DNA from: an uncultured Candidatus Saccharibacteria bacterium
GTDB lineage: Bacteria; Patescibacteriota; Doudnabacteria; UBA920
Direction of reading: 5' to 3'
NCBI GenBank assembly: GCA_964453405.1
Contig: CAYVOF010000002.1
Span: 10,825-74,824, forward strand
Length of the DNA stretch: 64,000 nt
Made by a program: the position numbers and the translations under genes. Of the stretch, positions 2,810 through 63,622 are shown piece after piece. The notes under the pieces are model-generated. The model made no database searches. It had not been told where the DNA came from and was given only the letters and a program-made list of their open reading frames with translations. Position 1 is the stretch's first letter; every line of letters starts with the position of its first letter.

Positions 2810-3493
2810 ATGTTTAACTTTAACCGTTTTAACGTAGCGCTAGGATTAGTTATGACAGCCATAGTATGGTGGCTAACTGGCCTTTCATTGTCAGCAGGCA
2901 GCGGTGTCTTGTTCTTAATCGGAGTATTCCTTTTATCCACACCATTCCTAAAGATTAAAGGTAACCTATGGTCGCTTTTTGGCGGATTCAACCTAGATGG
3001 TAGCGTTTATTCATTGTTTAGCGTTATTCAAATTGCTAATCAGGATGCTATATCACTATTTGGTTTATCCCTTTTGCAGGGGGCCGGTAGAAAATCTATC
3101 CAAATATTTGGGGTGTCATTTATTCAAGTCGCTGGACGGGAAGCTATCCAAGCGATAGGAATCTCTATAGCTCAGCTTTCAAAGGAAGATGTGATTCAGC
3201 TCGCTGGAATCTCCTTAATTCAATTTGCATTTGAGGGAGAGGCCTTTCAGGTATTGGGATTTTTATTATTCCAAGGAGGTGAAAATGAAGCTGCTCAAAT
3301 CATAGGAGTAACTATGGTGCAAGCTTCAGGCGATACATCTGCCCAATTATTTGGACTAATACTTCTTCAACTAGCGGACGAACGAGCAGAGCAATCATTA
3401 GGTTTGTGCGCTATTAGATCCGCAGAACGAGTAACCGGCAAAACTGCTCACCTGATATATGAGAAACCGAGTAACTTCGCTATTGCCAATTAA
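2810..3493 (+). CDS. Membrane-anchored protein with eight tandem 16-aa repeats (IQxxGxSxxQxxxxxx)
   Basis: Strong SD (AAGGAGG) 6 nt upstream. N-terminal TM helices followed by a 48-nt periodic repeat in the DNA at 3050-3435. Confidence 0.6.
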   Translation: MFNFNRFNVALGLVMTAIVWWLTGLSLSAGSGVLFLIGVFLLSTPFLKIKGNLWSLFGGFNLDGSVYSLFSVIQIANQDAISLFGLSLLQGAGRKSIQIFGVSFIQVAGREAIQAIGISIAQLSKEDVIQLAGISLIQFAFEGEAFQVLGFLLFQGGENEAAQIIGVTMVQASGDTSAQLFGLILLQLADERAEQSLGLCAIRSAERVTGKTAHLIYEKPSNFAIAN

Positions 3494-18183: not shown

Positions 18184-19836
18184 CTAATTGCGCGGCGCAA
18201 ATGGAGGTGTGGTTACCGGAGCAGTGCTAGAGATTCCAGTTGGATCCTCATACTCGGATGAAGGCAAAGGAATTAATGGTTTGATTTGGGGAGTTTGTAA
18301 ACAAACGTTTTGTTCTTGTAACACACCAATACCACCGCTACTCGATGCTCCGCCGCTGATAGGTGTAAACACAAATTTATTAACCAAATTCTCTACAACA
18401 CCCGAAACCAATTTACTAATCGGACTACCTGTATTATTAGTACCCAAGTTCATGGCTCCAGAAATAGCTGCTTCTTGAACATTGAATATAGCTGAAACGG
18501 TTTTATTAACCTGATTAGTAATAATATCGCGACCAGTTTTTACACCTGGACTTAAAACTTCTTTTGCTGCTGCACTGTCGGCCTCAGCCTTAGTTTGTGC
18601 TGCTAGTCCTGAGTAATAGCTTTCCCACCACTGCGGGTAATTTTTTTCATCACTACCTAGACGAGCTAATTTTTGAGCCCAGTCAGGATCATTAGGATTA
18701 ATGGTAATATCATTGCCAACGTTTGTCGCCGCTTTAGCCGTGAATATTTTGTTTAAATCTTTTTTAGTTGGATTGATACAAAAATATTCGGGTAAGAATT
18801 TTTGAATAATTCCTTGATCCAGTGGGTCAGATACGAACTTCTTCATATACTCTACAGAATAAAATCTTCCCAACTCGTTAGAGTAATACAGTTGACTAGC
18901 AATAGCAAAACTTTTCTCGATATGAGCCACTAATTTGTCTAACATTTTGATAGAAAAATTGGCAAACGATTTAGCCAAACCCTCCGCCACCGCCTGCAAT
19001 ACATCGCGTTTTAAATCCGTAATCACTGTTACTGGTCCACCGAATTGTGCTTGAGCAGTCTTAATGAATGGTGGTCCTGTGGCTCTTTCTATTTCTTCTA
19101 AGACTGCAAAATTGTTAGCTGTTTTACTTAACTCAGTGTTAACCACCGCCATTCGGTTATCAATGACCGCATAACTCTGATAAAAATCTGGCCAAGGGTC
19201 ACTGTTTCGATCTTCGCTGTAAGAATTAGCATCATCAAAAATCTGGCCATACTTATCAAAAGCAACTAAATTAGCCTTATGAAATTCCATCATACTTTCT
19301 GGCACTGTTAAACTACGCAGATTGGCTAAAAACTTTTCTGTATCAGCTTTGGCTTTAGACAAATCTGCGCTACTGGCATTATCAGCAAACAAACTTACTG
19401 AGGCAGGACTAACGGCCTGTTTATAATTGGCCACCATAGAACTAACGGTACTGAGGTAATTAATTACAAAATCTGTATCTTTGCGGGTGCTGGTTTTAAC
19501 TTCGTTACTAGCAACTTGAGGAACTACTATCTTTTGCTTAGTTTGCAAAGTTTGTTCAACCTGTTGACGCACCACATCTTCACTGGCAATTTTTTGCAAC
19601 AACTGTTGACTGGCACCATAATTAGGCTCAAGCTCAGCTAAAAAAGCTTTGTATTGGGCTAGCTCAGCCGCAGCCTGCTTATCAGCAGCAGTGTAGTCGG
19701 TCTTGTCTCTAAAAGCCCATTCTCCGGGCTGCCAAACAGTGATAATAGCCAAGGCCACTATAGCCATCGTGATTACAGCATAGGTAACTTTTTTATTAAT
19801 GTCTGGAGACAAACTAGGGATAATTTTTTTTGGCAT
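18184..19836 (-). CDS. Hypothetical membrane-anchored extracytoplasmic protein (550 aa)
   Basis: N-terminal TM anchor; no recognisable motif. Confidence 0.5.
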   Translation of the reverse strand: MPKKIIPSLSPDINKKVTYAVITMAIVALAIITVWQPGEWAFRDKTDYTAADKQAAAELAQYKAFLAELEPNYGASQQLLQKIASEDVVRQQVEQTLQTKQKIVVPQVASNEVKTSTRKDTDFVINYLSTVSSMVANYKQAVSPASVSLFADNASSADLSKAKADTEKFLANLRSLTVPESMMEFHKANLVAFDKYGQIFDDANSYSEDRNSDPWPDFYQSYAVIDNRMAVVNTELSKTANNFAVLEEIERATGPPFIKTAQAQFGGPVTVITDLKRDVLQAVAEGLAKSFANFSIKMLDKLVAHIEKSFAIASQLYYSNELGRFYSVEYMKKFVSDPLDQGIIQKFLPEYFCINPTKKDLNKIFTAKAATNVGNDITINPNDPDWAQKLARLGSDEKNYPQWWESYYSGLAAQTKAEADSAAAKEVLSPGVKTGRDIITNQVNKTVSAIFNVQEAAISGAMNLGTNNTGSPISKLVSGVVENLVNKFVFTPISGGASSSGGIGVLQEQNVCLQTPQIKPLIPLPSSEYEDPTGISSTAPVTTPPFAPRN

Positions 19837-22241: not shown

Positions 22242-22883
22242 TTAAAATTGTTCGGGTTCCGAGATATCAGCTTCCATATCTTCGTCTTTAGATTCAGAGT
22301 TGGTCATGCCACCATTAAATTCCCCGTCCTGACCGCCTTCACTGCCACCTAAGTGCTTGATAACATTTTCTACCGCAGCCCATTGAGTATCACCTTCACT
22401 TGGAACGACAATAGTAACTTCATCACCACCTTGAGCTTTAAAGTAAGTCAAAGAAGCTAATAGCACGCGGTAAGTTTTACCATCGGCAATAACCTTGTAG
22501 TCGCCGTTTTCATCTTGCATCAAAATACCGATAATCTTGCGACGCTCTACTGGACCAATTTGTTTGTATATAAAGGAGCCATCGTCCGCAATAGTAAGTT
22601 TGAGTACATCGCCTTCAACAAGTTTAGATTTAGAAGCATAGTTAGCCGGAACTGGATATTGCTTACTGTCGGGGCCAATCATGTTTTGACCATCAAAAAC
22701 ACCTTCAATTATCTTACCGCCTTGACTAACATCAAGACCGCTAGCTTTTTCGGCAAAGTTAGTTGAAGATTTTGGGATAGTTCCGCCGGCCATTTCGCGC
22801 AATAAATGCTTGGCGGATTGAATATTTTTTTCGGCTGCTTCGATCATTTGCACGATCAAAGCAAAATTACCAGAGTTGTCCAT
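22242..22883 (-). CDS. Hypothetical protein (213 aa) with an acidic C-terminus
   Basis: ORF with good spacing and no recognisable motif. Confidence 0.45.
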   Translation of the reverse strand: MDNSGNFALIVQMIEAAEKNIQSAKHLLREMAGGTIPKSSTNFAEKASGLDVSQGGKIIEGVFDGQNMIGPDSKQYPVPANYASKSKLVEGDVLKLTIADDGSFIYKQIGPVERRKIIGILMQDENGDYKVIADGKTYRVLLASLTYFKAQGGDEVTIVVPSEGDTQWAAVENVIKHLGGSEGGQDGEFNGGMTNSESKDEDMEADISEPEQF

Positions 22884-22983: not shown

Positions 22984-23304
22984 TTAGTCTTTACGGTCGA
23001 TAATTTCTTTTGAGGCTTTAATATGAATGATTTCGTTGTTGATAGCTTCTTCAATTTGAACATTAATAGCCGGGATCTTAGCGACCAACATCGAGATTCC
23101 TTCGTCCATTTTTTCGGGATCATCTAAATCAACCAGCTCTTGAAACTCTTTTAGCTGTTCATCATTAAGATTATTAATAACCACGCCAATAACGAGCTTG
23201 TTAAAATGGTCAGTAAGCTGAGCCATAACGGCATAACGATCATCCTCTGGGAGATCATTTACGCCAATCTCAGTTAGAACTTTTTGAATTATATCTTGGA
23301 TCAT
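22984..23304 (-). CDS. Small acidic protein (106 aa), start overlapping the stop of the giant upstream gene (ATGA)
   Basis: 4-nt overlap implying translational coupling. Acidic composition as seen in chaperone or immunity proteins. Confidence 0.45.
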   Translation of the reverse strand: MIQDIIQKVLTEIGVNDLPEDDRYAVMAQLTDHFNKLVIGVVINNLNDEQLKEFQELVDLDDPEKMDEGISMLVAKIPAINVQIEEAINNEIIHIKASKEIIDRKD

Positions 23305-26300
23305 TTTTTAACTCTCCTTTTTTCTCTTCGATAAGCACCTGCATCCTTTTCAAACTGTGCATACTTATTGCGAAGTTCATTGGCAATATTGATATTTACC
23401 TCGCCACCTTTGTTAAGTGCGTCAGCGATCTCCTCTAGAGTGTCTGATTTAACATATTTTATGAATTCTTCATCATCGGTTTCTGGTATGGTTTTTTGTA
23501 ACCCTGAATCTAAAATTGACTTAGCCTGATCTACAATCCAATCGTTTTTGTGCGCTTCAAAATACTTCTTAAATTTCTTTGACTCCGAATCCGAAACCTT
23601 GGCAGGTGTCTTTTGCTTAGCTTTCTCTAACCACTCCTCTAACTCGGGTGATTCTGCATACGGGAAGATCTCTGATACAACTTTATTTGCAAATCGTTCT
23701 GCAGTTGCATCTACAGCTCTCTGCTGTTCAGATTGCTGCTGAGGATATCTTCGATCATAACGATCAATAACCTTCTGGTCAGTATCTAACCAACGATTTG
23801 GGTTTGTTTGTCGAATCCCTGCTCGAAGCTGACCATTAATGTATTTCTCATCTAGCCTGCTAAGGTCTATTGTCATTTTACCCGGCTGAGTTTTAAAACG
23901 ATCAGAAAATTCTATTTTAATATTAGTTGGGAATCCCTTGTTAAAATTATTCTCAATAAGATCCCGGACTATTCTATTAGCTTCTAAACGATGCTGTAAC
24001 GGGAACTTTGAAAATGCCTCACTATGAGAAATGTTGTTGTTCACTTCCCATAAATCTTTGGTCTCTGGGTCTACTTGTGGAATTTCTACAGGCTTTGCAC
24101 CACGAGCTTTATCCCACGGCTTAAACTTTTCCCCTAAATTTTCCATTAATTGTTTAAAATCAGCATTAGACCAACCTTTAAATGCTGTAGCTCTGTGAGT
24201 ATCATCGCCACCGTTAGCGTAATTATTATATTTTTGAATTAACCCTTTATAAAACTTAGGGTTATCGGCTTTAATATCTTCCAATTCATCAAACTTGTTG
24301 TTAAATGTTCTTTGAGAAATATCCAATTTTAGAGCAGGTACTGATTCTCCTTCTAACTTATCAAGTAATAACTTAAAATCTGAATCTGTCCAATTTTCAA
24401 ATCCGTCCCGAAATCCATCAGATCCCCCATTAGCAAAAGATTTTAGTCTGGTAACTTGATCTTCATACCACCCTGGGTTTTCCAATTTATCCACTCTTAA
24501 CCCACGAAGTTTTCTATCAAAATATTTCGGGGTTTTAACTGTTTCTTTGTTAACTTCAAGAGGAGTTTCTTCATCGAGTTTAAGTGGATCAACTTCTAAT
24601 TTTGGGGCTTCGGTAGAACCAGATTTACGATTTTCATACTCAGACAATAATTTTTTGTATGCTCGATACTGATTAGTTGGGCTTAATTTGTTAAATCGCT
24701 TTTGTTCACCCTTTTTAAACTTAAATTTATGTTCTGTTTTTAACAAATCATAAGCTTCTTTAACTTTTGATTCTAGCATCCAATCACCAATTGCATAAAA
24801 GTTTTCCCTACTGTATGGCTTATTATTTAGCGGGATACCAACATAAAACTTCTTTTTTGAATAATTCAAATCAACTTTACTACCTCGTGGGTAAAAATCT
24901 AAAGTAACTTCGTTATTGATGTCAGATTCTTTTAACGCTGTTAAAGATTGCATGAAAAGATCGGCCAATTGGTCAATTTTTGCTTTTTGTTCTTTAGTAA
25001 TTTTATTTTGTGGCCAACGAACAACTTTTACATTTTTAAAACCAGCTTTTTTAAACCGTTCATCTATAGAATTTGGTGTAATCTCATTTTTATTACCCTC
25101 CTTAGCCTCAGTCTGGGATTCAACTTCTAGTTCTGGTGGTAGTTCTGCTTCTTTTGATGGTTCTTCCATATCAGATATCGTAGCTTCACCTAATTCTTGT
25201 AATAACCTGCTAAAATCATTATCAGTCCAGTCTTTAAACGACATCTCGCGATAATTACTAGATTTACCATTAGAAAAATCACCTAATAAACGAATTAACT
25301 CTTGGTATCTTTTATTGTCGTATTCTCTGTAGTTTTTAAATGCTTTAAGTTTACTATCAAATTCTTCTTTGGATATAGGTGTTTCAGCCTTTTCGGCTAC
25401 TTTTGGATTCTCTAGTTTTTCTAGTAATCGTTTAAAATCGCTGTCAGTCCAGTTTTTAAATTTATTTTTTCTGAAAGTATTTTCTTTACCCAAAGCAAAC
25501 TTTTTTAAATAAATACCTGCGGTTTTTTTGTAACGCTCTGGCTGATCCTCCTTCATCTTACTTAACTCTTCATACTTATCATTAAACTCCTGCTCAGAAA
25601 TTCCGGATTCCTGCTTGGCTTCTTTTGCATCCTGATTGTCAAAAGGAGAACCTTCTGGTTTAGGAATCGGGGTTTCTTCTACCTTATTATTATGCGGACT
25701 CGGCGGTGCTCCAATCGGGAATTTTTCATTATTATTACGCTTTGTAGCTTTTGAAGGCCAGCCTGGGAATTTAGCATAATCTGAACCAGCCTGCTCATCA
25801 GGAACCACTTGTGCATTCTGTTTAATATACTCAAGGTGTGTGCGAGCTTCTTGACGTTTTTGTAATGCTAAGGACTCTAACAATGAGGTTGCTAATAATA
25901 CCGAATTCATAGTAGCAAAATCAGTCGCAGTCATAATCAATGGACCTGGTTGGCTGATAATTTCTTTAACGACTGCACCTGCTTGATCTGGAGTAAAGTT
26001 CATCATTGCCTGACGAGTTGCTTCGGACAAAAAGTGTGGTTTATGACCAATGAGATGATGAATATTTTCTAACCCACCCTGAGTAAGAGGACCGTTTCCC
26101 ACGCCAATTACATTTGCTTTCTCCAACGCGGTTGCTAACTGATCAGTGCTCCAAGTGATCTCATGAACATTGGCACTAATTCCATGATGGAGTGCTTCTT
26201 TTGCTAGAGTGTCTTCAGCAAAAACTAACTGCTCTACAGTTACACCACCGGCAAAATTGGGATCAATACCTCGTTGTTCAGTTATAAAGTTATGTAGAGC

Positions 26301-27623
26301 ATCACGTGCACCACCAGTTATACCACGATGGTCTAGGTGTTGCGTAAATACGTCATGAACATTAGGTTTAACTTCTGCAGCTGTCGTAACCGTAGCCGCT
26401 CCATGTCCAATAAATTCCGAGGCAATAGCACCAACTCCGGCCGCCAAACCTGAACCCAATAATCCAAACAAAGCACCTTTACCAGCAGCTCTAGCAACAG
26501 TTCCCCACTTGCCTTTAATACCTCTTAGTCTGTGTTTTGAATAATTCTTATCTAAACTCTTTTCTATATTCTTAATCATCTCCTTGGCTTCTTTGCTACG
26601 GTTAGTACCTTCGAGTCCGTTTCGTTCGCCTTGAGATAATTTTAAAATGTATTCGATTTTGTCACGTTCACCCATATTGGCAAACTTGCCATCTTTTTTA
26701 TCAAGCTCGGTCTGCATTTCGGCTCGAGCCTGATACAGACTTACTAAAATTTGTTGATATTCCTCAGGTGAGGCATCAAATTTTTGTTTAGCCCAAAGGT
26801 CTTCGAGCTTGCCAAGCATGGCAGCTTTTTCAAGATAGCTAGAATTATGAAAACGATCCATGATTTCTCGTGGATTATAAATTTTAGATTCGCGCCAAGC
26901 AGCCTTAAAACCTTCGATACCTGCACCCGCTGCAGCACCTGCACCTAATAGAACAGGAATACTAGCACCAAACGCAGCGATTGCTCCAAGTTTTACAGCA
27001 ACTCTAGCACCTGTTCCTACTACTACACCACCAAGAAATGAACCCCACTTAACATTTTTTATTGTATCTTTAGCCTGAACAAGTACGGCTGTCCTTGCTT
27101 CTTCGGAGGTATTAAGTGTGTTAAAAGTATTCCGAACATTATTTAAAAAGCTTTTTTTACCCTGGGGAGAAGTTAAAGCATTCAATACCTGGTCACCTTG
27201 TTCTTTAGATATGGTCTGATTGTCAACTAAGAACTTTATCTGTTTTTCGGGATTTTCTGTAAGTTCTTTTGCCGCGTCCTCTACGCCTTTTTCTACCTCA
27301 GCTTTGGCTTTTTCAAGTTCTTTTTGGCGCTCCGGATCTGGATTCTGCTCTTGTCTTACAACTCCCTTAATAAGCTCCTCAGTAGTTATAGGATCCGGCT
27401 CATTTTTGTCTTTACCACCTTCTTTGCTTGACTTTCGAGCCTTTTCTTTTCTTTTTCCTTCCCTAAACTGATCTCTTACTTCACGATCAGCTTCATTACG
27501 AAGATCCGCCTGTTCATTTTCGTATTCCATATCACGATTAACAGGGCCTTTATACTTGCCGGTAGTTTCCGGATTATTTTTTAATGCTGCAGCTAGGTCA
27601 AAATTTGACTCGCCTTTTCCCAT
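23301..27623 (-). CDS. Giant protein (1440 aa) with two glycine-zipper TM segments and four C-terminal ~62-aa repeats
   Basis: Charged N-terminus; Gly-rich hydrophobic segments at aa 196-236 and 382-410 (nt 26916-27038 and 26394-26480); repeats at aa 676-1165 (nt 24129-25598) containing the recurring motif FKNWTDSDFKRLLEKL. Confidence 0.6.
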   Translation of the reverse strand: MGKGESNFDLAAALKNNPETTGKYKGPVNRDMEYENEQADLRNEADREVRDQFREGKRKEKARKSSKEGGKDKNEPDPITTEELIKGVVRQEQNPDPERQKELEKAKAEVEKGVEDAAKELTENPEKQIKFLVDNQTISKEQGDQVLNALTSPQGKKSFLNNVRNTFNTLNTSEEARTAVLVQAKDTIKNVKWGSFLGGVVVGTGARVAVKLGAIAAFGASIPVLLGAGAAAGAGIEGFKAAWRESKIYNPREIMDRFHNSSYLEKAAMLGKLEDLWAKQKFDASPEEYQQILVSLYQARAEMQTELDKKDGKFANMGERDKIEYILKLSQGERNGLEGTNRSKEAKEMIKNIEKSLDKNYSKHRLRGIKGKWGTVARAAGKGALFGLLGSGLAAGVGAIASEFIGHGAATVTTAAEVKPNVHDVFTQHLDHRGITGGARDALHNFITEQRGIDPNFAGGVTVEQLVFAEDTLAKEALHHGISANVHEITWSTDQLATALEKANVIGVGNGPLTQGGLENIHHLIGHKPHFLSEATRQAMMNFTPDQAGAVVKEIISQPGPLIMTATDFATMNSVLLATSLLESLALQKRQEARTHLEYIKQNAQVVPDEQAGSDYAKFPGWPSKATKRNNNEKFPIGAPPSPHNNKVEETPIPKPEGSPFDNQDAKEAKQESGISEQEFNDKYEELSKMKEDQPERYKKTAGIYLKKFALGKENTFRKNKFKNWTDSDFKRLLEKLENPKVAEKAETPISKEEFDSKLKAFKNYREYDNKRYQELIRLLGDFSNGKSSNYREMSFKDWTDNDFSRLLQELGEATISDMEEPSKEAELPPELEVESQTEAKEGNKNEITPNSIDERFKKAGFKNVKVVRWPQNKITKEQKAKIDQLADLFMQSLTALKESDINNEVTLDFYPRGSKVDLNYSKKKFYVGIPLNNKPYSRENFYAIGDWMLESKVKEAYDLLKTEHKFKFKKGEQKRFNKLSPTNQYRAYKKLLSEYENRKSGSTEAPKLEVDPLKLDEETPLEVNKETVKTPKYFDRKLRGLRVDKLENPGWYEDQVTRLKSFANGGSDGFRDGFENWTDSDFKLLLDKLEGESVPALKLDISQRTFNNKFDELEDIKADNPKFYKGLIQKYNNYANGGDDTHRATAFKGWSNADFKQLMENLGEKFKPWDKARGAKPVEIPQVDPETKDLWEVNNNISHSEAFSKFPLQHRLEANRIVRDLIENNFNKGFPTNIKIEFSDRFKTQPGKMTIDLSRLDEKYINGQLRAGIRQTNPNRWLDTDQKVIDRYDRRYPQQQSEQQRAVDATAERFANKVVSEIFPYAESPELEEWLEKAKQKTPAKVSDSESKKFKKYFEAHKNDWIVDQAKSILDSGLQKTIPETDDEEFIKYVKSDTLEEIADALNKGGEVNINIANELRNKYAQFEKDAGAYRREKRRVKK

Positions 27624-27757
27624 GTTTTTGTTTCAAAAGTTGATAAAATTCTTATAAACATTATACCACAATTATAAAGGAAATAAAAAAAACAGGACTA
27701 AGATATACTTAGCCCCGTTGCGAAAAGAAACTCGCCAGGTTGATCCGTTAGGATCGG

Positions 27758-28561
27758 TTACTGTCGTTGATCGTTTCGAGTTCCAAGGTCTCTATCCCAA
27801 ACTGAGAGATTAATCTCTTGATGATAGTTTGTACGACCTTCTCCTACGGCTGGCAACTGCGTCTGTCCACCGTAATTACTACCTCTGACCGGCATCAGTA
27901 GAGCAACGACGTTATTATTGTTTCCGCCATTACCCAGTGGTTGGTAACCATTGCGGTTGCCGTAACCGAGGTTGTTCTGGTAAAAATCTCCTTCAAACCT
28001 TCGGTAGTCCCGACTCAGAATGTTGAGATTACGATGACCAATATATCCCCCAAGCCACAATAGAAACAAAGATGCGACAAGGAAAAATAAAAACGTGTAC
28101 ATCGGCCAGCCCGTTAAAAATTCAAGATTACCAAGCCTTCTTTTGACATCTGTGATATCAGCGGTGTGACCATTGATGATCTCGGCGTGTTGGGTAATTA
28201 ACTCACCCTGCGCATTCTGAGTATTTTCGATGGTAACGATCTTGCCATCCTGAATCCCATTGGCCAATCTCGCTTCCTTGTCGACACCATTCATATAGTA
28301 GCGTTTGTTAACCACTCGATTGACGACAACGTTACGTGACGAACCGCCGCGATTGTAAGAACCCTGCGGGATCGGTAGAACCGGAACTCGTCCTGCCGGA
28401 GCCGAAGCTGTTGGCGGCGGAGTTGCCGTGCTCGAAGCGTTGTTCGAAGTGTTAAACGGTTGAACGCGCTGCGGTCTCTGATCGAGTTGAGCGGAAGCCG
28501 ACATTGCGAAAGCGAAAAAAGAAAGAACGAAAATAGAAACAAGCGATGTTATTCTTTTCAT
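27758..28561 (-). CDS. Secreted or single-pass membrane protein (267 aa)
   Basis: N-terminal signal peptide, a Pro/Thr-rich linker, an internal TM (WPMYTFLFFLVASLFLLWLGG) and an Asn/Gly-rich C-terminus. Confidence 0.5.
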   Translation of the reverse strand: MKRITSLVSIFVLSFFAFAMSASAQLDQRPQRVQPFNTSNNASSTATPPPTASAPAGRVPVLPIPQGSYNRGGSSRNVVVNRVVNKRYYMNGVDKEARLANGIQDGKIVTIENTQNAQGELITQHAEIINGHTADITDVKRRLGNLEFLTGWPMYTFLFFLVASLFLLWLGGYIGHRNLNILSRDYRRFEGDFYQNNLGYGNRNGYQPLGNGGNNNNVVALLMPVRGSNYGGQTQLPAVGEGRTNYHQEINLSVWDRDLGTRNDQRQ

Positions 28562-28829: not shown

Positions 28830-29279
28830 TTAAATTACTAATTTAGCCTCAGAAACGGTGGAACCTTTGGCTTTCTGTGCCTCCCAGTAGTCAATAGTAG
28901 CCTCATCATAGGCTTGTTCAAGCCATGGAGCCACAACCCAGCCTACTAGAGCTAAAGCTTGAATTAAACCTGTCCACTGCTCTAAACCAAATGGAAAGCC
29001 GAATTTACCAACAAGACAAAGCATGTTGACTATAGTTAAAATGATACCTGTCATCATCAGTGTCAACCAAAGATACCGTGTCCATTTAATAAATTCTGCC
29101 AGAGTCGGATATTTGTATGCCAACATAACCGAAATAGCCGATCCAACTGTGAGAGTGAGCAACATAAAATTCATTGGCTTTGATGTAGGCATTCGCACCA
29201 CATACATCAACCCAACAACCATCAACGCCGATACAATAAAAAACAAAATTGTATTTTCAGTATTTGTTCTTCTGTTCAT
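28830..29279 (-). CDS. Small polytopic membrane protein (about 4 TM)
   Basis: SD (AGGAGG) 6 nt upstream of the ATG; the track start is a TTG 3 nt earlier. Confidence 0.5.
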   Translation of the reverse strand: MNRRTNTENTILFFIVSALMVVGLMYVVRMPTSKPMNFMLLTLTVGSAISVMLAYKYPTLAEFIKWTRYLWLTLMMTGIILTIVNMLCLVGKFGFPFGLEQWTGLIQALALVGWVVAPWLEQAYDEATIDYWEAQKAKGSTVSEAKLVI

Positions 29280-29376
29280 CAATTTCCTCCTAAATTATTT
29301 GAACCTAAAAAAATTTCAATTAAACGTTAAAAACTTCTTGGAAAAGAATATCACAGAAAACTGGTTTTGGCAAGAC

Positions 29377-31935
29377 CTAAACTGTCTTCTCTACTGCGCC
29401 TGGTCCAGCAGCCATCATATCAGCAACTTGGCTAGCTTCTAGGATTTCTGACTCAACTTCACTGCGTGGACGGCCAAATTTTAACCGCGACAGTTGACGA
29501 ATAGCCTCGGCAGTTTTCTTTTGCTCTTCATTAGCTTTTGGTAGCGGATAAGTTGCCATATTAAACGGTTTACTAGCCGTTCCCTTAATCATCAATTTTA
29601 CAAACGCGTTAAAGCGATCAACGTTTAATAAATCGAACTCGTTAAATGTTGGGGCAAATTCTTTAGCCATAACTTCACTGTCTTCTACACCGATACGGAA
29701 CGTGACCATACTACCAGCATTTCCAAACACCGCATCGCGAAGATCGTTACTTGCCGCACCTTGTGCACCCGCAGCTTGACCAAGCTGCGCCAAGAACTGG
29801 TGACCAATAATTAAGTTTAATCGATACTTACGGGCTTCACTTAAAATAGATGAGAAAGCATCAGTAATAAAGTTCTGGAACTCATCTACATATAGATAAA
29901 AATCTTGACGTTGATCTTCGGGAATATCAGCGCGCGACAACGCTGCCATCTGAATCTTACTAACCAAAATCAAACCAATCAGTTTGGCGTTCATTTCCCC
30001 TACTTTTCCTTTGGCCAAGTTCACTAAGAGGATTTTTTTATTATCCATGATGTCTCTAAAATTGAAGGCGCTCTTTGGCTGACCAACAATATTACGCATC
30101 ATGGAGTTTTCTACGAAGCGACCAACTTTGGAAACCAAATAACCCAACATTTCGGACTTATGAAAGTCGCTAGTTTTAGCCATTTCTTTTTCCCAAAAAG
30201 CACGAACCACTGGATCATTTAATTTAGAAACTTTGTACTTTTGGAATTCGGTGTCAGTAAAAATGCGCGGTACCTCGACAATTGTGCCTGGGTTTTGTTC
30301 ATCCGCCATCAACGTAAGCATGGCGTTGCGCATATTATGTTCGAACATTGGTCCAAGCATGGCAGGGTCGGTAACCAATTTATAAAAGATCGAGATCATT
30401 TCTTGTACAGCAAAATCTTTTTGACCTTCACTAGTCACTTCGAGCATGTTCAAACCCATTGGCCGGTCTGTATCGAATGGATCAAACAAAATTACATCTT
30501 CGGCACGCTCTTTTGGAATATGAGGTAAAACGTCTTCAATAAAATCACCGTGTGGGTCAATAATACAAATTCCGTCACCATTCTTAATATCCTGCACAGA
30601 CATGTACTTCATGATTTCGGTTTTACCCACACCAGTACGCCCTAGAATATACATATGACGACGACGATCATCGCGCGACATATGAATCTTAGTTTCTTGG
30701 CCACGATAAATATTACGACCTAATAAGATTCCTTCTTCTGGCAAATTAATTGGAGGTGGAGCTTTTTTAGATAGCAACCATTTGATGTTTGGTGTTTCTA
30801 AAAATGGTGTTGGGAGATGCCAAATGCTAGTTAATTCTTCGGTGTTTAAAATGGCTTTACGGCCATAACGACGATAGATGCGAAAAATATAATCTTTAAT
30901 AATACGTTTTTTGGCACGGCGCTTTACGCGAAAACCATTAAACGGCGCCATGTTGTACTGCAAAAATGAAGCTACTAAGTTATGCATATTAACTTTGGCT
31001 TCTCCAGGAGTTGGAGACGCAGTAATTAACCGAATGTTAGTAAAAAATCCTGGACGACTGGCTTTTTCTTCAAAGCGCTTTACCATTTCTTGCTGCATTG
31101 GGGTTAAGTTAATCGCCGAATATCGTCCCGATAAATCAGTGCGTTGCTGCATTTGATCTTTACTTAACTCACCACTTCCTAATGCACTGGTTTTTGCAGT
31201 ACTGGCAACTTCACGCGCAAAACGACCAAACGCACTCTTGGCAACAATGTTTGGATTTTTCCCTTGCTGAATTTCCAACGCCATATGACGTGGTCGGTGC
31301 TGCCAATGCTCGCCTGCGGGATATAAAATCATTTGAATCACGGCGCCGTCTTCATCGCCAAGTTTTGACATTGCATTAGTAAGGGAGTTAAGTGGATCAG
31401 TTTCCATGCTCTTATAAGTTCGGAAAGGATACATATAAGGTTTCGTAAGACGAAGCTCAGTTGCCTCAATCTGACCTTTGGCCGGAAAAGGATTATAGCC
31501 TTTAATCTCTTCGATAAAGGCATGAGGATACTGCGCCTGAACCTGCTTTTCAATTAACTCTTGTAGCTTGCGCGGGCAATTAATATAAAACGAAATCTTT
31601 TTATCAATACAGGCAATTTCGAAACTAATATATTCTTTAGGTTGAAAAAACCAGTTGTCATGACTTATACCCGAGAGCGTAGTAAATAACTGTTCCGCAA
31701 TACCAATTAGTAGTTTTTTCTCTTCATCTCGTTGATACTTTTCTTTATCTTCGCTATTATCTTTTGGCATTTGAATTTCTAAGAACACCCAATCTTTAGT
31801 GCGCGGCAAAATTACGCGGCCATAATACCAATGCCGGTGCAAATAATAAACCAGGAAAACCAAAAACACTATTACTAAAATTCCTAGCAATAGTGATGCA
31901 ATAATAATTGTATTAAGTTCTAATCCGAACGGCAT
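29377..31935 (-). CDS. Membrane-anchored FtsK/HerA-superfamily ATPase of type IV secretion type (VirB4/VirD4/TraD-like) with an atypical ~400-aa N-terminal domain
   Basis: N-terminal TM; Walker A GRTGVGKT (aa 432-439) followed by IIDPHGD; Walker B LYVDEFQNF (aa 680-688); 852 aa. Confidence 0.6.
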   Translation of the reverse strand: MPFGLELNTIIIASLLLGILVIVFLVFLVYYLHRHWYYGRVILPRTKDWVFLEIQMPKDNSEDKEKYQRDEEKKLLIGIAEQLFTTLSGISHDNWFFQPKEYISFEIACIDKKISFYINCPRKLQELIEKQVQAQYPHAFIEEIKGYNPFPAKGQIEATELRLTKPYMYPFRTYKSMETDPLNSLTNAMSKLGDEDGAVIQMILYPAGEHWQHRPRHMALEIQQGKNPNIVAKSAFGRFAREVASTAKTSALGSGELSKDQMQQRTDLSGRYSAINLTPMQQEMVKRFEEKASRPGFFTNIRLITASPTPGEAKVNMHNLVASFLQYNMAPFNGFRVKRRAKKRIIKDYIFRIYRRYGRKAILNTEELTSIWHLPTPFLETPNIKWLLSKKAPPPINLPEEGILLGRNIYRGQETKIHMSRDDRRRHMYILGRTGVGKTEIMKYMSVQDIKNGDGICIIDPHGDFIEDVLPHIPKERAEDVILFDPFDTDRPMGLNMLEVTSEGQKDFAVQEMISIFYKLVTDPAMLGPMFEHNMRNAMLTLMADEQNPGTIVEVPRIFTDTEFQKYKVSKLNDPVVRAFWEKEMAKTSDFHKSEMLGYLVSKVGRFVENSMMRNIVGQPKSAFNFRDIMDNKKILLVNLAKGKVGEMNAKLIGLILVSKIQMAALSRADIPEDQRQDFYLYVDEFQNFITDAFSSILSEARKYRLNLIIGHQFLAQLGQAAGAQGAASNDLRDAVFGNAGSMVTFRIGVEDSEVMAKEFAPTFNEFDLLNVDRFNAFVKLMIKGTASKPFNMATYPLPKANEEQKKTAEAIRQLSRLKFGRPRSEVESEILEASQVADMMAAGPGAVEKTV

Positions 31936-44802: not shown

Positions 44803-45666
44803 ATGAAACCAACTATTTACCAGGTAGGCGCTCCAACCAGTGAAGTTAGGCGTCTTGAGAATTTGGAGTGGCCAAATGAAGTTAGCAAAAGTATCCTCGA
44901 AGCACTTCATGCTGGAATCCCAATCACTTCCCTACTCGATGCAGGAGCCGGCCCAGGAACACAAATGGCGGAACTGTGTTATAAACTCGATATTGAGTAC
45001 AGAGCATTTGACAATGGCAAAATGTCGACCCCAGTCGGCGACGTTTATATGGCTGACATTCTTAAAAGGAATCTGTGGGATAAAGGCCTTCTAGGCTCTT
45101 CGGTTGTTGCCGACGTATTGACCGTTGGACTAGACTCATTTGGTGACCGTAATTACGATCTGCGCGATAACAGTCTTCCTGATATTGTCCACATGCGGTT
45201 CGTACTTATGCACTTGCCAGCTTGTGAATGGGCTATGGCAATTATGAATATGCTCATGCTAGCACAGAAACGATTAATTTTGATGGAATACGATTGGCGA
45301 ACTGTTAAAAGTTCATCGCACCCCACATTAATCGAAGAAAGTGTAAAAACTTTTGAACGATTTGCCAAGTTGGTAAATCTCAACCTCTACGCCGGCCGGA
45401 ATCTAACAAACGAGGCAAATGGATTTGGTTACCCTGTAACTGAATGCGTATATTCCAGAGCTGAAGGTCATTATGCGCAAGAGCTGGCCTCTAAACTCCC
45501 GACAGGAATCGAGACGGCGAGGAAAATTGGCGAGATCGATCTGGCAAATGAGCTGCAAAATATAATGGATACTATCCTAGGATATGGAAATGGGTTAACA
45601 CTCGTTCCAGCAGAAATTCACGCCGTTGTGATCGATACATCAAAGGAACGCATTCGACGCGTTTAA
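44803..45666 (+). CDS. Class I SAM-dependent methyltransferase
   Basis: Motif I LDAGAGPGTQ. GC content is somewhat higher than in neighbouring genes. Confidence 0.65.
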   Translation: MKPTIYQVGAPTSEVRRLENLEWPNEVSKSILEALHAGIPITSLLDAGAGPGTQMAELCYKLDIEYRAFDNGKMSTPVGDVYMADILKRNLWDKGLLGSSVVADVLTVGLDSFGDRNYDLRDNSLPDIVHMRFVLMHLPACEWAMAIMNMLMLAQKRLILMEYDWRTVKSSSHPTLIEESVKTFERFAKLVNLNLYAGRNLTNEANGFGYPVTECVYSRAEGHYAQELASKLPTGIETARKIGEIDLANELQNIMDTILGYGNGLTLVPAEIHAVVIDTSKERIRRV

Positions 45667-54175: not shown

Positions 54176-54913
54176 ATGTCACAACTACTAAGTCTGGACG
54201 ATCCAGAAGTAATTAAGGTAAAAAGAATTTTTGAAGCAAATAAAATTAGCTACAACAGAGGTGATCATAAAGGAGTTTTGACCTTTGATGAATTATTCAC
54301 TTTATTCTCAGATCCCGCTAACACTTTTGCCAAAATTGGTAAACTCGATAAAACATGTAAACAAAATATGAGTGTTAAGTACGCTACGTATTTTGCTCCC
54401 TTGTTCCCGATAGATTTAGAAACGGGAATGGGACGGAGAAAAGCTGCCAGACAACTAAGATGGCAAAATAATTTCCACCCCGAAAGCCCTGCAGGATTAT
54501 TAGCTAACTTGATTAAGGAAAAGCAGATACAGCTTAATGTAAATGGGATATCCCAAGCTTCTGGACCCGCTAAACCAATGTGGCACTATGTCAAGATTAA
54601 TGACAATCTCATCTTTGTCGCCATATGTAAACAGTCTACCCCTCAACCGCACACCATTAGAAAGTATTTTAGATTCTCTCTAAGTAATAAGACTTTAGCA
54701 AAGGTTGAATTCGTTTGCTTTATCACCATGTGTTCGTCAGGTCCAGACGTATATATTCTTTCGAAAAAAGATTTCAGTCATCACAACAGTCGTAGCAATG
54801 TTTACTACATTCCTGACCCAGAAAGTCCGAAAATCGGTTATGGGGCCAACCCTATAATTAATTGGGGGTTCCATAAAAATAACTGGGCACTATTAGACCA
54901 AAACGCGAAATAA
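54176..54913 (+). CDS. Hypothetical protein (245 aa)
   Basis: SD AGGAGG 7 nt upstream; terminator cgcgaaataacttcgcg plus T-run at 54905-54932. Confidence 0.5.
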   Translation: MSQLLSLDDPEVIKVKRIFEANKISYNRGDHKGVLTFDELFTLFSDPANTFAKIGKLDKTCKQNMSVKYATYFAPLFPIDLETGMGRRKAARQLRWQNNFHPESPAGLLANLIKEKQIQLNVNGISQASGPAKPMWHYVKINDNLIFVAICKQSTPQPHTIRKYFRFSLSNKTLAKVEFVCFITMCSSGPDVYILSKKDFSHHNSRSNVYYIPDPESPKIGYGANPIINWGFHKNNWALLDQNAK

Positions 54914-55087: not shown

Positions 55088-55252
55088 GATTGTCTCGCTA
55101 ATTAAGTCCCCCAGCAAAAACCGTAACATATTTATTTAGTACGAACTTTTACTGAGGGCTTAAACTAGCGAGGCAACTCGTGAAATTTTTTGGCACCGGC
55201 CCCAGGCCACTGTCAATTCGTTACTCACTTCAGAATATAGGAGATAAAAAAG

Positions 55253-56073
55253 TGAAAATACCTTTCGAAATTTGTATTAAAGCGAGCGAATTCTTTAACC
55301 ACATGGCAATCGGTCTCAAGGGCAAGTTTTGCCCATTCGACGATGGTCAACATTGGCCCGAGCTCACGATCAGCCACACAAAAGACGGCAAGATCGAAAT
55401 TTCAAACGATCGAAACGGCCTAATAACGATGAACCAGGATGATACACTCAACGTGAATCAGAAAGGACACATCGGCTTAATCTTCGGACCAGCCCGCTTC
55501 GGTAAAAATCGCGTTAAGGCAGCAATCGCAGCAACCTCACTACTCAGCCGGGATGTTGAATTCAATAATACCGATGTGTTCATCCCTATGAATGGACACT
55601 ATGTAATCGTGTTTGACGCTAACAAGCCTGACGGTCAGCATGAGCAAAGAATCAACGAAGTCGGCACAGTCGTCCAAGGACACGACGCTGTAATTCTCTT
55701 CGACCGAAACGACAACCCGGTTAAGGCTTGGCTTCGGAACGACGCGCAAACCACACTCGCCTTTTTGGCCAGCTGTGCAAAACGCAAACCGTCAGGAGCG
55801 ATGCAAATCTTCTTTGACCGCGGCCTCGAAGCATTCAATGCTACCGTAGCGGCGAATGCGCTCAAGAGCCAGCGTAATACAGAGCTGGAAGCGCTGACCA
55901 AGAAGCTCGAAGTCAACAAACCAGTCAAGGTCATGGTCGGCAACAAAAAATTCGTCGTCAGTTGGCGCAAAGTCAACCGCGGCGAAATGGTCAGCGCAAA
56001 ACGAGCTGATCTCAGAACCCTGTACGATACGGGTGTTCTCCACGAGATCGTCGCCCAGGTTTCGACTCATTAA
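55253..56073 (+). CDS. Hypothetical protein encoded in a roughly 50% GC segment, likely horizontally acquired
   Basis: GTG start with SD AGGAG 9 nt upstream. The track ATG at 55180 lacks an SD. No recognisable motif. Confidence 0.5.
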
Positions 56074-62455: not shown

Positions 62456-63472
62456 TTAAACCACAAAATAATTGTCTTCTACGGGCTTACCATCGGCATC
62501 TTCCACGCGGCGCATAATGTCTTCGAGGTCTTCGTCGGAGAAAAATTCGATGGTGATTTTTCCACCCCGACCTTGGCGCGAAACTTTAACCTGAGTACCA
62601 AACTTGCCCCGCAGTTTTGTTTCGATCGCCATAAGTTTTGGGTCTGGTACAGCAGAATCCACCACTTTGCGCTTGGCAAACTCACGTACCCGAGCCTCTA
62701 CTTGGCGCACGCTCATGCCTTGGTCTAAAATTTGTTTATACATCAACAACTGTTTTTCGATATCAGGAAGAGTAAGAATGGCGCGACCATGACCTTCAAA
62801 AATTTTACCTTCAATAATACCACGCTGAATCTCAGCAGGTAGTTGCAGCAAGCGCATGGTATTGGCAACACCCGAACGCGACTTACCCACCTTAACAGCA
62901 ACTTCAGCTTGGTTAAGCCCGAACTTTTGCATTAAGCGTTGGTAGGCCTGTGCTTCTTCGATTGAGTTTAACTCTTGGCGCTGAATGTTTTCGATCAAAG
63001 CAACTTCGAGCTTGGTTTGATCTTGCAAAGTTTTTTTAACAATTGCTGGAACTCTAGTTAAGCCAGCCAACTGCGACGCTCGAAAACGGCGCTCTCCTAC
63101 TACTAATTCATAACCGGCTTCTGTCTCGGTAACTACCACAGGCTGAATCACGCCATGCTCTTTAATCGAATCCGCTAATTCTTGCAAAGCTTCTGGTTTA
63201 AAAACTTTGCGAGGCTGATACGGATTAGCAACAATTTTGGAAACTTCAATTTCTTGAATAGTACTATCGGTATACGAAACTTTTTCGGAAGGTTCTAAAT
63301 TTATAGTTTCGTTACTTGCTTCGTCAAGATTAATTACATCTGGTGCCAGTGGTTCAGCAATGCTAGGAGTGGGATTATCAGAAACAAAATTATCGCTTGG
63401 AGCTATTGCGCTACCGAGCGATTCATCTTGATTTAAATTATTTGTAATGTTAGTTGGATAGATTGAATCCAT
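62456..63472 (-). CDS. parB: Chromosome partitioning protein ParB/Spo0J
   Basis: ParB box VVGERRFRA and HTH. The start was trimmed to MDSIYP at 63472 because the longer track ORF overlaps the tRNA. Confidence 0.85.
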   Translation of the reverse strand: MDSIYPTNITNNLNQDESLGSAIAPSDNFVSDNPTPSIAEPLAPDVINLDEASNETINLEPSEKVSYTDSTIQEIEVSKIVANPYQPRKVFKPEALQELADSIKEHGVIQPVVVTETEAGYELVVGERRFRASQLAGLTRVPAIVKKTLQDQTKLEVALIENIQRQELNSIEEAQAYQRLMQKFGLNQAEVAVKVGKSRSGVANTMRLLQLPAEIQRGIIEGKIFEGHGRAILTLPDIEKQLLMYKQILDQGMSVRQVEARVREFAKRKVVDSAVPDPKLMAIETKLRGKFGTQVKVSRQGRGGKITIEFFSDEDLEDIMRRVEDADGKPVEDNYFVV

Positions 63473-63480
63473 AAGTTCTG

Positions 63481-63566
63481 TGGTGCCGGTGGTGGGAGTC
63501 GAACCCACACGCCCTTGCGGACAGTGGATTTTGAGTCCACCGCGTATGCCATTCCGCCACACCGGC
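63481..63566 (-). tRNA. tRNA-Leu (anticodon CAA), type II with long variable arm, CCA encoded
   Basis: Manual cloverleaf: acceptor GCCGGTG/CACCGGC, 3-bp D-stem, anticodon loop CTCAAAA, variable arm of 15 nt, T-loop TTCGACT, and a CCA 3' end. Confidence 0.85.
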
Positions 63567-63622
63567 ATATAAATAATAACTTCCTAATTCTATCAAAAAC
63601 TCTCTGCTTCCGCAAAGAGTAT

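Follow-up and report, generated by a model that had tools for sequence, protein, structure and literature searches.

A 1440-residue Gly/Ala-zipper protein of a Doudnabacteria-like bacterium carries four lineage-specific copies of a predicted four-helix module

The window analysed here is a stretch of 64,000 nucleotides from contig CAYVOF010000002.1, and our subject is a gene on its minus strand (23301..27623) that encodes a giant protein of 1440 amino acids (aa). The window represents a cellular chromosome with a ribosomal-protein operon including SecY, genes for EF-Tu/EF-G and glycolysis, DnaX and ParB, and nearly all of its genes are located on the minus strand. Orthologues of the giant gene reside in the same gene block in two complete genomes of 0.85 and 0.94 Mb. 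One of these genomes, GCA_016699995.1, which encodes the orthologue P0009, is listed as Patescibacteria, Doudnabacteria (PMC13011429 supplement). Since the SecY protein of this genome is 89% identical to that of the window, the source organism is, by sequence comparison, a Doudnabacteria-like member of the Patescibacteria.

The giant open reading frame (ORF) starts with the first ATG past the upstream stop codon, and its product is rich in Lys, Glu and Ala and contains no cysteine. An initial annotation of this DNA had described an ORF of 1440 aa with Gly-zipper segments, a His-rich stretch and four repeats of about 62 aa, all of which were recovered in place. It had also considered that the ORF might be split by frameshifts in related genomes, but the ORF was intact in every relative found. 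These include 10 orthologues of 1130-1265 aa, which are the only whole-protein homologues found and share 31-36% identity with the giant protein.

According to their hidden Markov model (HMM) envelopes, repeats R1 to R4 span aa 678-740, 753-814, 1033-1093 and 1105-1166 (25404..25592, 25182..25367, 24345..24527 and 24126..24311, respectively, on the minus strand like all features of the giant gene described below), a few residues off the boundaries first proposed. The motif W[ST][DN][SNA]DF occurs exactly 4 times in the protein, and pairwise BLAST comparisons of the repeats gave 31-41% identity with E-values of 1e-8 to 8e-14. The core FKxWTDSDFxxLL that had been called invariant was drawn too broadly, since only F..W...DF..L...L is strictly invariant across the four. 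As an independent test, a profile was built from 74 module copies from outside and zero sequences of the window. This profile scored 46-57 bits at each of the four positions in the giant protein and 183 bits overall (E of 6e-50 at a database size of 1.84e9), as compared to 9.1 bits for the best of 200 shuffled versions of the protein. AlphaFold predicted four helices per repeat of 62 aa with a pLDDT of 89, while the pTM of 0.53 corresponds to two rigid units whose relative orientation is undefined. These observations support the view that the repeats are a real unit, predicted to fold independently, outside the families described in the libraries searched. That they might serve as a binding or recognition module, as initially suggested, is a reasonable guess.

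The same module was found in many other proteins. A search of metagenome proteins for the WTDSDF module had been proposed in the initial annotation, and when the four-repeat profile was compared exhaustively by HMMER with 1.84 billion representative proteins (E≤1e-3), it matched 61 proteins including the query, which means that 60 other protein clusters carry it. As defined by the profile ENFEEKLENLKKLKENDPKEYEETIAELRDMAEGGDPEGIREEYYPGWTDEDFKELLEELGEE of about 62 aa, the family comprises 85 copies in 63 proteins. Many of the carriers are free-standing proteins of 73-112 aa with little beyond a single module, and about 16 consist of two modules in tandem (130-180 aa). Some larger proteins bear the module C-terminally, including a group with an N-terminal CCHC zinc knuckle that was read from the sequences. 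The free-standing modules have neither a signal peptide nor a transmembrane (TM) helix, and their mean net charge is near -5. In the zinc-knuckle group, P0020, P0028, P0031, P0046 and P0066 are proteins of 190-290 aa with an N-terminal CxxCGxxHxxGxC knuckle and a C-terminal module. The region 'FYEVDTPxGWTKTTDNxWTEVKD' is conserved in P0028, P0031 and P0046, and P0041 has its C-terminal part in common with the group; P0028, the sole member scanned, showed no Pfam match. Another carrier, the 1390-aa protein P0049 from a JGI metagenome, has one module (aa 258-320) and a C-terminal hydrophobic cluster of the Gly/Ala-zipper type. P0049 was rejected as a homologue of the core of the giant protein, the hhalign probability being 0.8%.

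The initial annotation had left room for the repeat belonging to a well-characterised domain family, but no significant family was found for the module in Pfam, NCBIfam, PHROGs or the PDB sequences, and Foldseek comparisons of its model with PDB and BFVD returned nothing at E≤0.001. The only signal to recur was that three module copies aligned over their last ~20-40 residues with the recombinase-like helix-turn-helix family HTH_62 of Pfam (E of 0.04-0.14; model positions ~30-72, or 54-72 for R2 of the window). However, these scores of 14-15 bits compare with a threshold of 27 bits, most module members are without a match, and Foldseek found nothing in PDB. A relationship with WXG100 proteins, the substrates of type VII secretion, was rejected as well: WXG100 proteins are helix-turn-helix hairpins of ~100 aa with a central W-x-G motif, whereas the module is predicted to have four helices in 62 aa, has a G-W motif instead and shows no Pfam match. 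Relatedness of the module to DUF5663, the Pfam family that is of relevance for the neighbouring gene described below, was also rejected.

Genomes were additionally scanned with a degenerate DNA pattern, which gave 49 matches, 10 of them true modules as judged by the HMM; the remaining ones, including all matches in Chlamydiae, were attributed to chance by the same HMM. The true copies belong to Peregrinibacteria, Peribacteria, Parcubacteria, Falkowbacteria and other Patescibacteria metagenome-assembled genomes (MAGs), and to three MAGs labelled Gammaproteobacteria, two of which have a GC content of 63-65%. The latter two, L030 and L031, thus carry true modules outside the Patescibacteria, and mis-binning seems unlikely because one of the contigs is 333 kb long. 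Among viral contigs, the pattern produced two chance matches and zero modules. Likewise, no further module was found elsewhere in the window or in the related loci.

The repeats do not define the giant protein, but are lineage-specific insertions. In an alignment with the 10 orthologues, both repeat pairs are inserted in the window protein alone. A scan of metagenome contigs with a profile of the core added a further close relative (L053) and the three distant relatives L054, L055 and L056, and the repeats are absent from all of these as well as from the 10 orthologues. The closest relative of R1 among the repeats is R4. Distances among the repeats are roughly those that separate them from the outside copies, though slightly smaller. 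A simple duplication of a repeat pair was rejected on these grounds, and the distances suggest an old capture of the module that would have been followed by amplification inside the gene. The repeats share the C-terminal arm with two regions that are kept in the orthologues, namely 'domain A' (aa 853-945; 24789..25067) and 'domain B' (aa 1195-1290; 23754..24041), both delimited by alignment. The two domains show no significant similarity, and a relationship between them was rejected. Domain A is tandem-duplicated in the orthologues P0005 and P0007 (E of 1e-10 to 1e-14 for the second copies), which indicates that the C-terminal arm gains and loses modules in several lineages. The arm ends in a basic tail, RREKRRVKK, that is absent from the orthologues.

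The common part of the giant protein and its distant relatives (1502 aa in L054, 1811 aa in L055 and at least 1135 aa in L056; 25-29% identity) is restricted to a core consisting of a first Gly/Ala-zipper segment, a helical region, a second zipper segment and an alpha/beta domain, while the N- and C-terminal arms of these relatives are unrelated to those of the window protein. The N-terminal arm of the latter (aa 1-190; 27054..27623) is rich in Lys and Glu, poorly conserved, and without a signal peptide or hydrophobic stretch. Segment 1 (aa 194-240; 26904..27044) consists for 47% of Gly and Ala with GxxxG motifs at 194, 199 and 229, and segment 2 (aa 376-406; 26406..26498) for 54% with GxxxG motifs at 383 and 392. 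Both have many small-xxx-small triplets inside the hydrophobic stretch. The Gly-rich hydrophobic segments with GxxxG-type zippers that had been noted initially are confirmed, and their glycines are invariant across the family (invariant residues are G199, G203, G213, G219, P223, G229, G233, G383, G387 and G390). Since segment 1 is about 46 residues long with the invariant P223 in its middle, it may be a helical hairpin and not a single helix. The conserved helical region between the two segments (aa 241-375; 26499..26903) is marked by the motif WRESKSY...ERDKIxYIL and a basic cluster ahead of segment 2, and its helices were modelled by AlphaFold2 (AF2) with a pLDDT of 58-73.

Segment 2 is followed by the alpha/beta domain (aa 407-568; 25920..26405). 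The description of this part as His-rich holds, since aa 405-545 contain 12 His residues (8.5%) as compared to 0-1.6% elsewhere in the protein; among the orthologues, invariance is limited to H444 and H530, with H432 coming close. The domain displays the motifs DHRGxTGGARD..H and EQLVxAED..K, which persist in the distant relatives as an invariant G.T...R...H and EQLV.AED...K (G434, T436, R440, H444, E464, Q465, L466, V467, A469, E470, D471 and K475). For aa ~425-492, AF2 predicted a strand-helix-helix-strand arrangement with a pLDDT of 70-86, within a core model that is poor as a whole (pLDDT 52). A LysM identity of aa 407-568 has no support from sequence, the corresponding segments of six family members giving no LysM match at E up to 10, and the core had no match in Pfam, NCBIfam, PHROGs or PDB. 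A scan for charge and hydrophobicity revealed a weak hydrophobic segment 3 (aa 569-590; 25854..25919), which is clearer elsewhere, appearing as a TM helix in L054 and as a Gly-zipper type segment in L056. Directly behind the core lies a Pro-rich linker that is apparent from the alignment (aa 610-665; 25629..25796; FPxGPPPSP...PIPKPEGSPF).

Conservation in the family, distant relatives included, is highest at the zipper glycines, and GxxxGxxxG zippers are reportedly over-represented in channel-forming helices. This would fit an oligomeric channel or pore, in which the zipper helices form a homo-oligomeric channel for transport or membrane damage that is regulated by the arms. We consider such a function rather improbable. 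Ordinary helix-helix packing makes use of zipper motifs just as often, no Pfam glycine-zipper or channel family matched the whole protein at E up to 1 or the isolated core at E up to 10, and the gene occurs as a single copy at a conserved chromosomal site without an immunity-like or toxin-like context. Transmembrane glycine-zipper proteins, such as the Pfam Gly-zipper families and the channel helices of the VacA type, do have GxxxG and small-xxx-small patterns in Gly/Ala-rich segments in common with the giant protein, but none of the Pfam models matches and the giant protein is many times larger. Nothing points specifically to the pore-forming role suggested in the initial annotation; the gene is chromosomal, syntenic and paired with another gene, and not part of a toxin cassette.

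The gene paired with the giant gene encodes a 106-aa protein (22984..23304, minus strand), and its ATG overlaps the TGA of the giant gene as ATGA in the window. A gene of this type (104-123 aa) is directly adjacent in 7/7 loci examined; in L054 and L056 it precedes the gene of the giant-protein family, and in the other five it follows it. We refer to it as DUF5663-like, because the partner scores below the Pfam gathering threshold (E of 0.0027; 18.7 bits versus 23.7 bits); 3 of 6 relatives matched DUF5663 at E up to 0.1, the best one at 3.4e-4. This family of unknown function is the only recurrent Pfam signal, and it derives from the neighbour gene and not from the giant protein itself. On the other side, a terminator-like hairpin (27719-27691) sits 3' of the upstream gene and before the ATG of the giant gene. 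It is followed by the sequence TGgTATAAT (27668-27660), an extended -10-like box (TGnTATAAT) that was not flagged by the scan but read by eye, so that the two elements cover 27660..27719 of the minus strand. Together with the ATGA overlap, they suggest that the giant gene and the DUF5663-like gene would form their own transcription unit.

Large size, hydrophobic segments rich in glycine and a small neighbouring chaperone gene are also typical of the tape-measure proteins of phage tails. The size of the giant protein, its zipper segments and the tightly linked small gene are reminiscent of a tape-measure remnant. This idea is effectively refuted by the absence of matching models and by the neighbourhood: there is no PHROG or Pfam tape-measure match, the neighbourhood in the window and in close relatives is made up of ribosomal, SecY, DnaX and glycolysis genes without phage structural genes, and the position is conserved in the complete genomes of 0.85-0.94 Mb. 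The neighbours in the distant loci are mostly of the housekeeping type as well; L054 additionally has a Gp49-like gene and L056 one of the integrase type, but there are no tail genes among them.

To place the conservation of the locus in context, we compared the window with L001, L002 and L053. Identities were 86-89% for SecY, 83-89% for a VirD4-like ATPase encoded upstream, which is hence conserved like SecY, 81-83% for a 213-aa protein and 62-70% for DnaX. In contrast, they amounted to 39-41% for the giant protein, of which only the core could be aligned, to 45-58% for the DUF5663-like partner, and to 26-31% for two small membrane proteins upstream, despite the flanking genes exceeding 80%. 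The giant gene is therefore located inside a fast-evolving island between highly conserved genes. The membrane proteins concerned, both encoded directly upstream of the giant gene, are 267 aa (27758-28561, minus strand) and 150 aa (28830-29282, minus strand) long. The N-terminus of the former resembles a signal peptide and its tail is N/G/Q-rich, while the latter contains three hydrophobic segments. The 213-aa protein (22242-22883, minus strand), encoded just downstream of the DUF5663-like gene, has no family match but is strongly conserved, its 90%-identity cluster counting 9 members.

The orientation of the giant protein in the membrane was assessed by applying the positive-inside rule to the charges flanking its hydrophobic segments. 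In members where segment 2 scores as hydrophobic, the net charge is about +3 to +5 ahead of the segment and 0 to -3 behind it, with the exception of one scored stretch of L055 (-1 ahead). A basic cluster usually comes after segment 3, most clearly so in L054 and L056. We infer a layout in which the N-terminal arm and the helical region are inside, the His-rich alpha/beta domain is outside, and the C-terminal arm with its modules is again inside. A cytoplasmic rather than a surface location of the module would also agree with its free-standing copies, which lack signal peptides and are acidic, and the flank charges point the same way.

On this basis, we tentatively favour, while regarding it as far from assured, the view that the giant protein is a scaffold anchored in the membrane, having a small domain outside and fast-evolving arms in the cytoplasm, bearing four docking modules and made with the DUF5663-like partner. 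It would be a polytopic protein of the cytoplasmic membrane, anchored by the Gly/Ala-zipper helices of its core (aa ~190-600), which would expose the His-rich alpha/beta domain of ~160 residues outside. The long N- and C-terminal arms, which evolve fast and differ completely between lineages, would stay in the cytoplasm. In the lineage of the window, the C-terminal arm has taken up four acidic four-helix domains of ~62 residues, while the same domain elsewhere is mostly a small free-standing protein of presumably cytosolic location. Of this picture, the anatomy of the protein, the domain family, the insertion of the repeats, the gene pairing and the contrast in rate are shown by the sequences, whereas the topology and the scaffold or docking role are predictions. 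The arm could then act as a membrane-tethered platform showing four docking units in a beads-on-a-string fashion, and the giant protein would be made together with its small DUF5663-like partner from the overlapping downstream gene.

Some of the data can also be read in terms of a surface protein that contacts a host. Segment 3 would then not be a membrane helix, the Pro-rich linker would cross the wall, and the arm and modules would be displayed outside to bind the host cell of a presumably epibiotic bacterium. The position of the linker directly behind the core, the weakness of segment 3 and its lack in L055, and the far faster divergence of the giant gene and the two upstream small membrane proteins than of their flanks would all be in line with this, as would the wide belief that Patescibacteria are host-dependent (PMC12102498). 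We nonetheless judge this reading unlikely, although more probable than the other alternatives. Apart from the lack of signal peptides in free-standing modules, some modules are fused to CCHC zinc-knuckle proteins, which are of a type that is usually intracellular, and a basic cluster lies behind segment 3 in most members. Moreover, the rate argument is unspecific, because low-complexity arms rich in Lys and Glu also evolve fast in cytoplasmic scaffolds.

Several observations weigh against the membrane-anchored scaffold that we favour. The hydrophobic segments are weak (Kyte-Doolittle values of 1.2-2.0) with charged residues inside, the 19-residue maxima of segments 1 and 2 being moderate at 1.7-2.0, and the AlphaFold model of the core is, as mentioned, poor overall. 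Since segment 3 is only borderline among the window protein's own family members and L055 lacks it altogether, the C-terminal arm could lie outside; the Pro-rich linker and the fast evolution fit a surface protein too. The genes neighbouring free-standing modules encode only housekeeping proteins, LepA/EF-G/EF-Tu paralogues, RpoD and GIY-YIG proteins. Lastly, a 'docking scaffold' is a generic role that would fit many proteins. The closest functional analogy that we see is with polar hub proteins of the FimV/HubP type, which combine a membrane anchor and a small extracytoplasmic domain with a long, acidic and fast-evolving cytoplasmic repeat region whose tandem repeats recruit other proteins. 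However, these hubs have a true LysM and a single TM helix, whereas in the giant protein LysM was not detected, two or three Gly/Ala-zipper segments would serve as the anchor, and the arm location is a prediction. There was neither a sequence nor a fold match between the giant protein and FimV/HubP, and membership in known families is unsupported.

A gene for a TrwB/VirD4-like ATPase of 852 aa with an N-terminal TM helix (29377-31935, minus strand) lies ~1.7 kb upstream of the giant gene, an arrangement that is kept in close relatives. It matches phrog_5156, a family of unknown function, with an E of 3.8e-96, and its orthologues carry precomputed DUF8128 hits; a literature search yielded no mention of DUF5663 or DUF8128. 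The giant protein could be a partner or substrate of this ATPase, with its helical modules and basic tail acting as a BID-like recognition signal. BID domains of Bartonella/relaxase type IV secretion signals are likewise small helical bundles with a basic tail, encoded in the vicinity of a VirD4-like ATPase, but no homology to them was detected. In favour of such a partnership, most coupling-protein genes of Patescibacteria are distant from virB4, and alternative roles have been proposed for their products (PMC12102498). It nevertheless appears very unlikely, since neither the modules nor the tail are present in the orthologues, a terminator-like hairpin divides the giant gene from the upstream genes, and no copy of the ATPase gene flanks the giant-gene homologues of the distant relatives L054-L056. 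The latter finding makes the adjacency look like lineage synteny. In addition, none of VirB4, VirB6 and VirB8 was present among the ~50 window ORFs scanned (11.8-16.9 kb and 38.5-44.6 kb being unscanned), and no Pfam, NCBIfam or PHROG match related the giant protein to VirB/Prg/Trs components.

Patescibacteria account for a large share of bacterial diversity, and their envelope-organising and host-dealing proteins are largely unknown. The present analysis defines two things, a four-helix domain family of ~62 residues with at least 60 further clusters, and a conserved membrane core that is always accompanied by a DUF5663-like gene. The module and the core are both outside every library searched, which is novelty at the protein-family level. 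Because the gene pair diverges fast between otherwise near-identical genomes, it is a candidate for lineage-specific interaction functions. As a long shot, the giant protein and its partner might constitute an unrecognised, Patescibacteria-specific two-gene membrane machine with a possibly channel-like core and diversifying arms, in which a new portable docking or targeting domain would connect such machines, or the conserved orphan VirD4-like ATPase, with the small free-standing proteins during episymbiont-host interaction. The giant protein may just as well prove to be a further hypothetical scaffold protein. The module is small, confidently predicted and easily expressed, so that structure determination and partner screens are feasible.

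Some further genes of the window deserve mention. The plus-strand ORFs at 2810-3493, 44803-45666, 54176-54913 and 55180-56073 encode products of 227-297 aa without a Pfam match. A 550-aa protein (18184-19836, minus strand) begins with a single TM helix and matches nothing in Pfam or NCBIfam; it is syntenic and 57-71% identical in related genomes. Finally, the mechanically called ParB ORF (62456-63568, minus strand) overruns a tRNA-Leu(CAA) gene (63481-63566, minus strand) at its 5' end. Its Pfam domains start at residue 103, and the true start of ParB must lie further downstream.

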